Virus record (IMG/VR): IMGVR_UViG_640753024_000009
Direction: 5' to 3' (one strand)
DNA: 48,932 bases
DNA from: a virus
Lineage: Duplodnaviria > Heunggongvirae > Uroviricota > Caudoviricetes
Shown: positions 14,442-19,451 of the stretch, piece after piece
How positions within the stretch are numbered: the stretch's first letter is position 1
Layout: each line of letters begins with the position of its first letter
Made by a program: the position numbers and the translations under genes
The notes under the pieces: generated by a model
The model's input: only the letters and a program-made list of their open reading frames with translations
The model's database searches: none
Told to the model about the DNA's origin: nothing

Positions 14442-15751
14442 TATTCATCCCCTAAAATTGAACGCCCTGCCGCGACCAGCATCGAGACGTTTGCGGTTGT
14501 TCCTGTTGCCGTGGTGCTGCCGGCATCCTGAATAGTTTCCGGTGATTCAGTGCTCATGAGTGTATCGAGCGCCGTTTCTGTCCGCGCCTGCGCTGTTTGC
14601 GGTGCTGCCGCGAGGACAGCCTGCGCCTGCCCGACCGTCATCCCGGGGACGGCAGCGAGCGCTTTTGCCTGCGCCTCGCGCCCAACAGCTTCGGGACAGT
14701 TGATGATGGCCATCACGCGTGCCAGTTCGCTCGATGCGGCGTCCGCGCGAATCTGCTCCGCGTTGGACTCAACCGGCGCGACCGTAGTCGTAGCCGCGGT
14801 TTGTTCTGTGGTCGTGGTCTCCGCCGTGGTTTCTGTTGTACCTGGCATAAATCGCTCCGTTTTTGGTTTCAGTGCGTCGGCCATCACTGCGATAGCGTCC
14901 GCGTAATTAACGAGTTGATCAGCGAGACCAGATTTAATCGCGTCCGCGCCGATAAATACTGCGGCCTCTGTGGCCAGCACCCTGGATTTTTTCAGCCCGG
15001 TATAATCCGAGACTTTTTGCGCGAACTGCTCGCGTGTGCTGTTAATACTCAGCTGGAATTCGTCGCGAACGTCGTCGGGCAGCTGGGAATACGGGTTCCC
15101 GTCGACTTTGTGCGCGCCGGCGTAAATCAGCGTCACGTCAACGCCGGCAATCTCCAGCGCCTTTTCGACGCAGCGGTGAGCCATCAGGACACCGATTGAA
15201 CCAACCGTGCCGGTCTGCGTTATCAGCCGGCGCGAACACGCTGACGCCAGCAAATATGCGGCGCTGCAGGCCGTATCGCTGGCCAGCGCCCACACCGGTT
15301 TTTGCTCTCGCGCCCGGGCGATTAAATCAGCGGTATCAAACGCGCCGGCGACCTCACCGCCAGGGGAATCAATATCCAGCAGGATCCCCTTAACATCGGG
15401 ATCAGAAATCGCCTGCTGCAGGCGTTTTGCGATTCCGTCGTAACCACTCATCCCGCTGACCGGATTGATATAACCCAATTTATGAACCAGCGTCCCGGTA
15501 ACCGGCAGAACGGCTATACCACGCTCCACGCGATACGATTTCTGGCGTGTTCGCTCGCTGCTGTCCCACCCCATCGCGAGCGCGTTCATTTCGTCGCTGT
15601 TCATTACCTCTCCTGACGCTGTATCAATCAGTCGCCCGGTACCGAACCGGTCGCTCAGCGCAGAAAAAAATACCCGCGCGTAGGCGGGCTCCAGCAAAAG
15701 CGGTTGATTGAACGCCCTAGCGGCGAGGTGCGGAAAATTGTTCCACGGCAT
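14441..15751 (-). CDS. Head maturation protease / scaffold (lambda gpC, S49 peptidase family)
   Basis: 436 aa (lambda C is about 439 aa); S49/ClpP-like region followed by Thr/Ala-rich scaffold-like tail; start overlaps portal stop. Confidence 0.85.
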   Translation of the reverse strand: MPWNNFPHLAARAFNQPLLLEPAYARVFFSALSDRFGTGRLIDTASGEVMNSDEMNALAMGWDSSERTRQKSYRVERGIAVLPVTGTLVHKLGYINPVSGMSGYDGIAKRLQQAISDPDVKGILLDIDSPGGEVAGAFDTADLIARAREQKPVWALASDTACSAAYLLASACSRRLITQTGTVGSIGVLMAHRCVEKALEIAGVDVTLIYAGAHKVDGNPYSQLPDDVRDEFQLSINSTREQFAQKVSDYTGLKKSRVLATEAAVFIGADAIKSGLADQLVNYADAIAVMADALKPKTERFMPGTTETTAETTTTEQTAATTTVAPVESNAEQIRADAASSELARVMAIINCPEAVGREAQAKALAAVPGMTVGQAQAVLAAAPQTAQARTETALDTLMSTESPETIQDAGSTTATGTTANVSMLVAAGRSILGDE

Positions 15752-16688
15752 CAGTTACCTCCCCAGCCGTTATCGTTGGTATTTGAGGGGTGAGATACTG
15801 ACCAGGATGGTTCGCTCAGCCCCATTTCGCGCCGGCGCTGAATTTCGTATTCCTGTTGTTCCATGACCTCCTCGTAGTCCTGCCCCTGCAGCGCGAGTTC
15901 GTTCTGATACGTGCTGAGGCCAGTCGTGATGCGCATGGCGCTCTCCTGAACCTCTTTCAGCCCATCAATCGCCATGCGACCAGCGCCGATCCAGAGCGCG
16001 TTCGTCCAGGAGTTCCGCGCTTCATAAAACGACCGGACCGCTGAGCGTGGCAGGGTGATAACTCCGCGCGCCAGAGCTTCCTCAAACCAGCAGCAGAACA
16101 TCAGTGACGCCTGTCGTGCGGCGATAAAACGTCGACGGCCCATGAAAAAACGCCAGCTCACGTTTGCGCTGGCCCGCGCGCTGGAGTAACTGACCTGGCT
16201 GTAGTCCCGACTCAGTTCCTCATATGACGCGCCGACGCCAGCGGCAACGTAACGCAGGAGTGATTTTTCCAGCGAACTGAAACCAGCATCAGCATTCTGA
16301 GCGGTCTGTAAACTGAGTTTGTCGCCGGGATGCAGGTGGGGAACTTTCACACCACCGAGCTTGATATTTGCGCCGTTGTAGTACGTCACGTAACTCTGAA
16401 TAAACGAACTCAGCGGGTTCGAGTCGATATCAGTACCCGCGCCGGCGATATATTCAAACGCCTGCTGGCTGTCGAGCTCTGATTCGATTGTGGCGGCGTA
16501 CATCGCCTTCACGATGGCGCTCTGCAGCTGTGTTTGCTGCAGCGTATCGAGCATTTTCAGCCGCTCCATTACGCTGTAAAAAATGTTATCTCCGCGGGTT
16601 TGTCCGTCCTCGAGCGGCTCGAATATGTGAATGAATGCGTGTCTGCCGCTGCTGAGTTTTGCTGGTATGCGCCGGCATTTACCAACTC
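15751..16688 (-). pseudogene. Portal protein (lambda gpB family), C-terminal fragment separated from its N-terminus by an IS element
   Basis: GRHAFIHIFEPLEDGQTRGDNIFYSVMERLKMLDTLQQTQLQSAIVKAMYAATIESELD is collinear with lambda B; reading frame continues upstream to the IS boundary at 16688. Confidence 0.85.
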
Positions 16689-16745
16689 TGTCAACGCCAA
16701 GATTATTGGCCGTTTTTCGCCATTTTTAATGTCCGCTATTGGTCA

Positions 16746-17543
16746 TTAATGTTGTCCGCTTTCCGCCATTTCATCATCACTGATTGGCGTGGCGTTTTTT
16801 GCCAGCACTCCCGCTTTGCGTTTTTCCTTTAACCGGTAGCTTTCTCCTTTGATGTTCAGTGTGGTTGAGTGGTGGAGCAGTCGATCCAGGATTGCCGTTG
16901 CCAGCACGTTATCGCCGAACATCTCTCCCCAGTCGGCGAACCCTTTATTTGATGTCAGCACGATGCTCGCTTTTTCATATCGACGGTTCAGCAACCGGAA
17001 GAACAGACTGGCTTCCTCGCGGGTCATCGGCAGATAGCCTATCTCATCCAGTATCAGTACCCGGGCATAACCAAGCTGCTGTAGCTGTTTTTCCAGCCGG
17101 TTTTCCTGTTTTGCCTTCATGAGTGTGGCGATCAGCTTATCCAGTGGCATGAACAGTACCCGATGACCAGCGTCCGCCGCTTTTACCCCGAGAGCGACTG
17201 CCAGGTGCGTTTTACCCACACCGGGCGGACCCAGCAGGATCACGTTCTCGCTACGCTCCACGAACGCCAGCCCGGCCAGCTCACGGACGACCTTACGATC
17301 GATACCTGGCTGGAAGCCGAAGTCGAACTGCTCCAGCGTTTTGACCCACGGGAAGCGGGCCTGTTTCAGCCGGGACTCCATACCGCGCTGATGCCTCCCG
17401 TTCCATTCCTGCTGCAACGCCATGCACAGGAACTCGCGGTAGTTCAGTTCTTTTTTGGCCGCCTGCTCCAGCAGGCTTTCAACGTGGTAGCCCAGATGTT
17501 CCATTTTAAGACGACTCAGCAGTGTCTCCAGTTCATGCATCAC
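16746..17543 (-). CDS. istB: IS21-family helper ATPase IstB
   Basis: 265 aa with Walker [12 protein letters not shown] and Walker B LILDEIGY; overlaps istA stop. Confidence 0.9.
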
Positions 17544-18712
17544 AACAGCTCCTCATACGTACTCAACGGTCTGTGTTCCACCTGACTGACCTGCTGCCAG
17601 AGTGGGGCGTGATGCTCCGGCACGGTTTGCCAGCTGGATGCAGCCGAACAGAGACGGTGCGATGCTACCTGTTGCTCATTACTGTAGATCCGTAGTTCAT
17701 CATCCAGCGAGATCCGTATTGATACCGGCTGGCCACACAGGCTTTCCGGTACGCTGTAACGGTTCCCGCCAACCTCGATATAGCCATCCCAGGAGACATG
17801 ACGGATATCGAAATAGCTGGTATCGAAGTCCGTACCCGGCAGCGGATGCAGATGCTCCTGTTCCTGCGTGAAGCGCTGTTCCGGTGTCTGCCTGAACTGG
17901 CGAAGTTCTCGCCTGTCAGCAACGTCAGCCATCCACTGCTCCAGTAGCTGGTTAACATGGGCGAAGCTGTCGAACCGGCGGTACCGGATGAAGAAGTTTT
18001 CCTTGAGGTATTTCACCATCCGTTCAACCTTACCTTTGGTTCTGGCCCTTCGTGGACGGCAGGCCCGTGGCAGGAAGCCATAGTGATCGGCCAGCAGCAG
18101 GAACCCGGAGTTGAACACCACCTTCCCGTTGTTATTTTTCAGCACTGCGGCTTTCTGGTTATCGACCAGCACGGTTTTCACGCTACCGCCGAAGTAGCGA
18201 AAGGCGCGGACCAGTGACTCATAGGTATGTTCAGCATCCTGCTTTGGTGCCGCGAAGACATGGAAGCGACGTGAGAACCCCAGCGTATTAACCGCGAAGT
18301 TAACCCTGCATCGTTGCCCGGCAACCTCAGCCTCAACTTCTCCCCAGTCATGCTGTAGCTGGTAACCGGGCTGAGTTTCGAAGCGAACCGTTTTCTTCGA
18401 TGGCCGCATCTTACGTTTGGGCTGGATGTAGTAGCGCAACATGGAACGGCCACCGGTATAACCCATCGCTTTGATTTCCGCCAGGATGACCTCGCCGTTC
18501 CAGACGTTCTCAGCCAGACGCATATCTATATAGTCCATGAACGGCTTGAGTTTGGCCATTTTGTGGCGTGTTTTTCTGGCCGGAGGTTCCGGGTATTTCA
18601 GGTACCGTCTGACGGTCCGCTCAGAGCAACCAACCTGAGTGGCAATATCAACAATATACGCACCTTGCTGGCGCATTTGCTTTATCATGTAAAAATCCTC
18701 TCTGCTCAGCAT
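17540..18712 (-). CDS. istA: IS21-family transposase IstA
   Basis: 390 aa, N-terminal HTH ([19 protein letters not shown]) and DDE integrase-like core; ATG at 18712. Confidence 0.9.
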
Positions 18713-18813
18713 GAGTGTTCCCTTTGTGGTGTAGGAACCTTAAGGAAACAACATGTTGGGTGGAGCGGACAATCCAAATGGTGAATTACTGTCTTATATC
18801 ATTGGCGCTGACA

Positions 18814-19451
18814 ACTCCGCCGAGGGGATAGGTATCCTCGGCTATCCAGTACCCAACCGCGGCCCCGTTTTTATCGATATCAACACCGGCGCGGCGAAAT
18901 TGAGTGTCAGCTGCGTAGCCAGGATTTCGAATTCGTTTCGGTGAGACCATTTTGAATCGCGTCCGAAAAACGCTGCCGGCGCAGCTCTCCCACACCGGTT
19001 GTACGCAGGTTTCACCGTTGAACGCGTGAGTGGCCACGCCTTCGCGAATCATCATTGTGAACGTCCGTTTCCGCTCGATATCAATCGTGCAGTGAGGGTC
19101 CTCGGCGTATTCAGTCCACGCGACCTCAACGTCACGCGCCAGCGCCCTGGCGTCCTCGCGAGATATCCCGATGTAACGCCAGTTAGGGCGATAACTCAAC
19201 TTAAACAGATTGCCGACGATATGATCCTGATGCAGCTGCACGGCGTTCGACGCGACGCCGTTATTACGAACGAGATCGTCTGCTCGCGCGTTACCGCGAT
19301 AAAAATTAGGCAGCAGTGCCGCATCGGCGCTTTGCTGTGGTGCATTCCAGTCAATCAGCTGGCCACCGAAGCCGGGACCGCCGCCGTTATACCCCGCGTA
19401 ACGGCGTAGTGGCGTTTTACCGTCAGGCCCGAGCAACTGCTGAGCAGTCAT
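18814..19451 (-). pseudogene. Portal protein (lambda gpB family), N-terminal fragment truncated by the IS element
   Basis: LLGPDGKTPLRRYAGYNGGGPGFGGQL and LPNFYRGNARADDLVRNNG match the lambda B N-terminus; ORF runs into IS sequence and stops 9 codons later. Confidence 0.85.

Follow-up and report, generated by a model that had tools for sequence, protein, structure and literature searches.

The serU prophage of the enterotoxigenic Escherichia coli (ETEC) strain E24377A carries a complete copy of the insertion sequence (IS) ISEc62 in codon 213 of its lambda-B-type portal gene. We analyzed this prophage as a stretch of 48,932 nucleotides (IMG/VR virus record IMGVR_UViG_640753024_000009), which we call the window and which lies in CP000800.1 (assembly GCA_000017745.1). 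We hold with high confidence that the insertion is recent, that the prophage is in an early stage of decay in which several hits have accumulated, and that it would not yield infectious particles on its own.

The interrupted portal gene and the inserted element

On the minus strand, the portal gene is now found as two pieces on either side of the element. The features that define the locus are as follows.

18814..19451, minus strand: 5' fragment of the portal gene, codons 1-212 and the first two bases of codon 213; residues 1-213 of the portal of the RM10042 prophage align here at 100% (tblastn)
15751..16688, minus strand: 3' fragment of the portal gene, residues 214-523 and the stop codon, with no start codon of its own; residues 213-523 of the RM10042 portal align here at 100% (tblastn)
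18786-19451, minus strand: present-day truncated portal open reading frame (ORF) of 221 residues, made of 213 native residues and eight encoded by the IS (VSANDIRQ), followed by a stop codon
16689..18813, minus strand: complete IS21-family insertion sequence, 2125 bp, 99.9% identical along positions 1-2125 to numerous copies in E. coli
16689..16700: terminal inverted repeat at the istB end, TGTCAACGCCAA, the left end of the element
18802..18813: terminal inverted repeat at the istA end, TGTCAGCGCCAA when read inward (reverse complement), the right end of the element
16685..16688: target-site duplication ACTC, left copy
18814..18817: target-site duplication ACTC, right copy
17540..18712, minus strand: istA, a 390-residue transposase with an N-terminal helix-turn-helix (HTH), an rve integrase core and a Mu-transposase C-terminal domain, assigned by domain matches
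16746..17540, minus strand: istB, a 264-residue helper ATPase, matching IstB_IS21 at 9.9e-88 over profile positions 2-238 of 238, with coordinates as PGAP gives them for identical copies

A sequence-only reading of the window had divided a lambda B-like portal into an N-terminal part at 18814-19451 and a C-terminal part at 15751-16688, separated by a 2125-bp istA-istB element with inverted repeats at both ends and ACTC duplicated at 16685-16688 and 18814-18817. It had also predicted that the flanks, joined over one ACTC copy, would give a continuous gene collinear with lambda B. All of these coordinates hold on the sequence, and the junction behaves as predicted. When 15751-16688 is joined to 18818-19451, a single minus-strand ORF of 1572 nucleotides is restored; it encodes 523 residues and contains the exact string ...AEDTYPLGGVGKCRRIPAKLSSGRHAFIHIFEP... 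quoted in that reading. At the edge of the insertion, the T supplied by the IS completes codon 213 as in the native gene, so that residue 213 is unchanged. The longest ORF that can be found inside the 3' fragment spans 15751-16569 and has 272 residues.

The restored protein leaves little doubt about what was interrupted. It matches the Pfam family Phage_portal_2 (PF05136) at 4.1e-90, with 302.9 bits against a cut-off of 32.9, and between its residues 3-509 and residues 6-512 of lambda portal protein B (PDB 8k38) the alignment is gap-free (E = 3e-219). The resemblance to lambda gpB extends from the gap-free alignment to the order of the neighboring genes, A, W, portal, C-type S49 protease, D, E and FI. 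It differs from lambda in that the portal is split at codon 213 and in that the phage is a mosaic, in which a lambda-type head is combined with a P2-type contractile tail. At the nucleotide level, nine complete E. coli genomes have a gene annotated 'phage portal protein' that is 100.0% identical to the restored gene in an unbroken alignment of 1572 of 1572 nucleotides; all nine lack the insertion, as does the related prophage of strain SE11 described below. In total, megablast found homologues without an interruption, at no less than 90% identity, in 442 genomes. Since the gene is no longer intact at full length, being divided at codon 213, we classify it as a pseudogene of the lambda gpB portal family.

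We looked for the same insertion elsewhere. A query containing both junctions found no place covering at least 80% of its length in 5,426 complete RefSeq E. coli genomes. Likewise, an exact search with the left junction gave no match among the GTDB species-representative genomes, a set with one genome per species that evidently does not include E24377A. No description of this insertion was found in the literature on ISEc62 and on E24377A prophages. The genome has been public since 2007, with both portal fragments and istA and istB already present as separate gene calls, and the kind of event is already known.

The element itself has the full anatomy of an IS21-family member. The istA product scores 6.3e-14 against rve and 5.3e-17 against Mu-transpos_C_2, and it also matches HTH_23 and HTH_7. 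Thus the transposase gene, with its HTH and DDE/rve core, comes first and is followed by istB, the AAA+ helper; the istA stop codon and the istB ATG overlap by one base (TGATG). The element is oriented in the same direction as the phage late operon. Its termini have the TG...CA form and its terminal inverted repeats are imperfect, with TGTCAACGCCAA and TGTCAGCGCCAA agreeing at 11 of 12 positions when compared by script on the window sequence. Further inside, there is a sub-terminal inverted pair (16716-16737 with 18764-18785, 82% complementary) and a sub-terminal direct repeat (16706-16725 with 16752-16771). These inner repeats near both ends agree with the several binding sites that IS21-family elements typically have at their termini. 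The length of 2125 bp and the ACTC duplication also fall within the 2-2.7 kb (approximately) and 4-8 bp that characterize the family. As far as its sequence can tell, the element therefore satisfies each testable defining feature of the IS21 family. Compared with known members (IS21, IS100 and others) and with ISEc62, it has the same gene pair, ends, overlap and 4-bp duplication, and we see no structural difference.

Other copies of the element fix both its name and its boundaries. In a megablast search of complete E. coli genomes, in which we counted places covering at least 80% of the IS query, 863 records had such a place, and the best matches were 99.9% identical over positions 1-2125. These best-matching copies are annotated 'IS21-like element ISEc62 family transposase' and 'IS21-like element helper ATPase IstB'. 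We accordingly call the element ISEc62, a name that rests on the PGAP labels of copies 99.9% identical to it. Five independent copies, on different chromosomes and plasmids, were each exactly 2125 bp long with the same termini, and were flanked by duplications of their own: ATCT, TCTC, AACT, CTCT and CCTGC. Because these copies share their length and termini and carry their own 4- or 5-bp duplications, we consider the boundaries of the E24377A copy and its 4-bp duplication correctly assigned. With the full-length match of the element to other copies and of the restored portal to intact genes, the arrangement lies far outside chance. A 5-bp duplication, AACTC, is formally available, as the IS ends in an A; we dropped it because the independent copies all end in ...TGACA and four of the five have 4-bp duplications.

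Copies at 99% identity or more occur in 117 records, with up to 18 matching places per genome, and they occupy many different sites and many kinds of genes, which is indirect evidence that the element transposes. ISEc62 also interrupts prophage genes in other, mostly ETEC, genomes, including genes for a lysozyme, a tail tape measure and a head morphogenesis protein. The copies suggest an IS expansion that has hit prophages repeatedly. We regard the insertion in the E24377A portal as recent because its flanks are identical to intact alleles and because the IS is 99.9% identical to other copies.

Strain-specific lesions in a serU prophage

The prophage sits between yodB and tRNA-Ser(cga) serU / mtfA, with an attachment (att) repeat and an integrase gene at the tRNA gene.

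47936..48012: 77-bp att repeat overlapping tRNA-Ser(cga) serU (47952-48041), at the integrase end; its partner copy lies just outside the left end of the window
46838-47866: tyrosine integrase gene, next to the att repeat

We compared it with PP_SE11-6 of E. coli SE11. The SE11 genome paper names E24377A as the closest sequenced relative of SE11 (PMC2608844), and PP_SE11-6 is described as a 47.6-kb prophage integrated at serU with a 77-nucleotide duplication and of 'unclear' type (PMC2608844 Table 2). The two prophages share the integration site and the att duplication, and they are 99.9% identical at the nucleotide level across the window. They align in four blocks of 99.91-99.97% identity with approximately 22 single-nucleotide polymorphisms (SNPs) in total. 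Only three large differences separate them, namely the IS and two deletions of 88 and 1326 bp, all of which are absent from PP_SE11-6. The differences other than the IS and the SNPs are listed here.

24701..24716: junction of the 88-bp deletion, between CAGACAGA repeats, in a gene for a holin-family protein (PF05449) of 90-94 residues; the deletion causes a frameshift and leaves a 47-residue remnant
about 24575-24715, minus strand: remnant holin-family ORF
43742..43743: junction of the 1326-bp deletion, with TT microhomology; it removes a 106-residue ORF and approximately the first 98 codons of an exonuclease-like early gene of 738 residues (phrog_2489, PHROG 'exonuclease' family)
602-607: 6-bp in-frame indel, GCTGCT, in the gene for a tail-fibre N-terminal-domain protein (1-1011, minus strand)
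42624: 1-bp difference in an HTH repressor gene, intact in the window (42576-42989) and frameshifted in SE11

We checked the 88-bp deletion in a spread sample drawn from the 443 related E. coli prophages that covered the query. All 29 full-length rows of this sample span 688-689 bp, against 601 bp for the query, and so have kept the 88 bp. The neighbors of the damaged gene in the lysis cassette are intact: a gene for a 127-residue holin that adjoins the deletion and a TIGR02594 endolysin-like gene. In the early region, what remains of the exonuclease-like gene is an ORF at 43599-45665 that begins at a fortuitous GTG. Both SE11 and RM10042 retain the DNA lost in the 1326-bp deletion, and RM10042 also retains the 88 bp. 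Because the more distant RM10042 prophage keeps both stretches, and because the 88 bp are kept in the 29 sampled rows, we place the origin of both deletions in the E24377A lineage.

The SE11 prophage has a lesion of its own. Its repressor frameshift results from one extra A at position 41592 of the SE11 stretch, within the gene at 41550-41958. Judged from these alleles, each sister strain has damaged a different function of the same prophage.

Head, tail and accessory genes

The genes around the portal are in good condition. Read along the minus strand, they follow the lambda head order of small terminase, gpA-type large terminase, gpW, portal, S49 protease, decoration protein, E-type capsid and FI.

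19678-21642, minus strand: gpA-type large terminase, intact
19448-19681, minus strand: gpW-like gene, intact
14441-15751, minus strand: S49 protease (gpC-type), intact, at least 99.7% identical to the RM10042 protein
14112-14441, minus strand: decoration protein, intact, at least 99.7% identical to the RM10042 protein
13016-14050, minus strand: E-type major capsid protein, intact, at least 99.7% identical to the RM10042 protein

Every other structural, lysis, regulatory, replication and integration protein of the reference prophage has a full-length counterpart in the window, with no internal stops. The mosaic is divided into a P2-type contractile tail module at 1-12981 (sheath, tube, baseplate V/W/J/I, X and D) and a lambda-type head and packaging module at 13016-22096. 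Within the tail module, the proteins of the sheath and tail-fibre region (approximately 5500-8170) share no more than about 70-90% identity with those of RM10042. This divergence indicates module exchange.

An accessory island of 7 kb occupies 28-35 kb of the window.

32272-33123, plus strand: full-length PD-T4-3/CMoRE homologue, a predicted GIY-YIG type IV restriction endonuclease (PADLOC 6.9e-138), with a probable true start near 32317
33204-34439: gene for a 411-residue HNH_2 protein, after the PD-T4-3 gene
28369-31991 and 34571-35131: four further ORFs, of 259, 220, 459 (minus strand) and 186 residues

The PD-T4-3 protein aligns with a solved protein from E. coli APEC O1 (9U7U) at E = 4e-164; the two agree at the majority of aligned residues, and the alignment has one gap, of a single residue. 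The 9U7U protein is CMoRE, a type IV restriction endonuclease specific for DNA containing 5-hydroxymethylcytosine (5hmC) and glucosyl-5hmC (PMC12923530). The four further ORFs received no assignment from Pfam or PADLOC, the 220-residue product having only a weak, sub-threshold Pfam match to a 7TM domain. They are annotated at the matching positions in SE11. RM10042 lacks them and carries different cargo at this place, an ImmA/IrrE gene and another GIY-YIG nuclease. They could be uncharacterized defence or moron genes. The whole island differs from SE11 by one SNP, which bears out the earlier claim that the accessory genes remain intact.

Probable loss of virion production and its alternatives

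The portal is central to head assembly in lambda. Its dodecamer nucleates correct assembly of the prohead, docks the terminase, channels the DNA and provides the site at which the head-tail connector attaches. Lambda B-minus mutants still build shell-like structures from the capsid protein E that are unable to package DNA.

In E24377A, the sequence shows that a complete IS21-family element has transposed into codon 213 of the portal gene and left the 4-bp ACTC duplication. From the lambda background, the following consequences can be proposed. The late operon would now yield only the 221-residue N-terminal stub and no full-length portal. Without a dodecameric vertex, there would be no terminase docking, no entry of DNA and no attachment of a tail. 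By itself, the prophage would then produce no packaging-competent proheads, although portal-less shells may still form. Translation of the downstream S49 prohead protease may also be lowered, because the portal stop codon and the protease start share one base and the IS genes run in the direction of the late operon. Together with the 88-bp deletion in the holin-family gene and the 1326-bp deletion in the early region, the IS would mark an early, multi-hit decay. Very probably, the prophage is unable to make infectious particles alone.

We also scanned 15500-19700 for promoter and terminator consensus sequences. Four promoter-like sites were found against 2.5 +/- 1.9 in shuffled sequence, which is no excess, and no terminator signal rose above expectation. 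Because the scan stays at the shuffled level, it gives no support for an outward IS promoter that drives the 3' portal fragment or for a strong terminator that causes polarity.

The sequence-only reading had concluded that the prophage cannot make procapsids and is likely cryptic. The first statement stands for packaging-competent proheads and infectious virions; taken literally, it is too strong, because aberrant shells without a portal may still assemble. The second is reasonable, and it is strengthened by the two additional strain-specific deletions, which that reading had not seen and which show that lesions are accumulating.

By the usual description, the prophage is a defective one. It has an att repeat and an integrase at a tRNA gene, and at least one virion-essential gene is inactivated, the portal by interruption, with the holin-family gene frameshifted as well. 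Retained are the integrase, the att site, the repressor, the replication genes, the remaining structural genes and the accessory and defence genes. In the Sp prophages of E. coli O157 Sakai, morphogenetic and other genes are likewise damaged by IS insertions, frameshifts and deletions, while integration, regulation and cargo have been kept (PMC2669165). E24377A differs from O157 Sakai in being an ETEC strain of phylogroup B1, and the IS and the prophage family are others. Overall, defective prophages of this kind have long been known in E. coli, and the event is an ordinary disabling of a prophage by an IS.

Several points weigh against the conclusion that virion production has been lost. The conclusion rests on the known essentiality of lambda gpB. 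In the lysis cassette, the second holin gene and the endolysin gene are intact beside the truncated holin-family gene. A compatible portal could possibly come from another E24377A prophage; our view is limited to 49 kb. Among phages, just four matches, at 93% identity, turned up in the collection searched; they are in silico predictions of prophages in clinical isolates (bioRxiv 10.1101/2022.06.29.498070), and as such they are no evidence for particle formation in this family. Finally, induction still occurs in many O157 Sakai prophages that bear IS insertions, frameshifts or deletions; their DNA is then released in particulate form, and transfer is seen for some of them (PMC2669165).

Might selection on the host have favored the insertion? 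Virion production and part of lysis would be knocked out, so that the prophage no longer kills its host, while the cargo (PD-T4-3/CMoRE, a superinfection-immunity gene and the repressor) is kept. Three independent lesions, in morphogenesis, lysis and early genes, have accumulated against only about 22 SNPs from the SE11 copy, and across the accessory island a single SNP has appeared, with the PD-T4-3/CMoRE homologue at full length; both observations speak for such selection. However, neutral decay in an IS-rich ETEC strain would also give three lesions, a single lineage is all that we have, and an element with up to 18 matching places in one genome lands in many kinds of genes. The pattern is compatible with selection and with neutral decay alike, and we consider selection unlikely as the explanation.

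A bolder idea has two versions. In the first, the lesions would be early steps of a selected domestication into a defence island (CMoRE/PD-T4-3, superinfection immunity and repressor); in the second, the disarmed prophage would spread by means of a portal borrowed from a co-resident phage. We think it quite unlikely that either is correct.

Alternatively, the prophage could be defective on paper only and still be mobile, with a compatible portal supplied by another lambda-like prophage of E24377A or regained by recombination with one. The O157 Sakai precedent favors this, as do the four lambda-like prophages that SE11 has besides PP_SE11-6 (PMC2608844 Table 2) and the intact state of the integrase, att site, repressor, replication, terminase, capsid and tail genes in the window. 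On the other hand, genomes with this portal have a median of one copy detectable by megablast and a maximum of three, which makes a close paralogue unusual; a portal must fit its own scaffold, capsid and terminase proteins; and the deletions in the lysis cassette and early region point to decay and not to maintained function. Mobility of this kind is very unlikely, and we keep to the reading of a prophage that is defective when alone.

Repeated IS elements are well known to cause misassembly, and ETEC strains carry ISEc62 in multiple copies, yet the idea that it was misplaced in the 2007 assembly is effectively refuted by the perfect 4-bp duplication and by an independent short-read assembly (Logan, run SRR9425412) that crosses the prophage-IS junction and contains the same 221-residue product, including its eight IS-derived residues. 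The Logan contig is identical over its 6666 bases and runs from the prophage into the IS, where it ends; because this independent assembly has the junction, we do not regard it as an assembly artefact. The exact truncated product is likewise present in CP000800.1, a segment of which occurs verbatim at window positions 12786-25451.

The finding has little importance beyond annotation, where the two portal fragments should be treated as one pseudogene interrupted by ISEc62. The comparison with SE11 provides a clean and datable case of early prophage decay, with three lesions against about 22 SNPs and the cargo and defence genes unharmed. It could serve as a small teaching example and as a data point for studies that survey how prophages become domesticated and how IS elements expand in ETEC. 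E24377A is an ETEC reference strain, and predictions of prophage inducibility or of phage-mediated gene transfer should count its serU prophage as defective.

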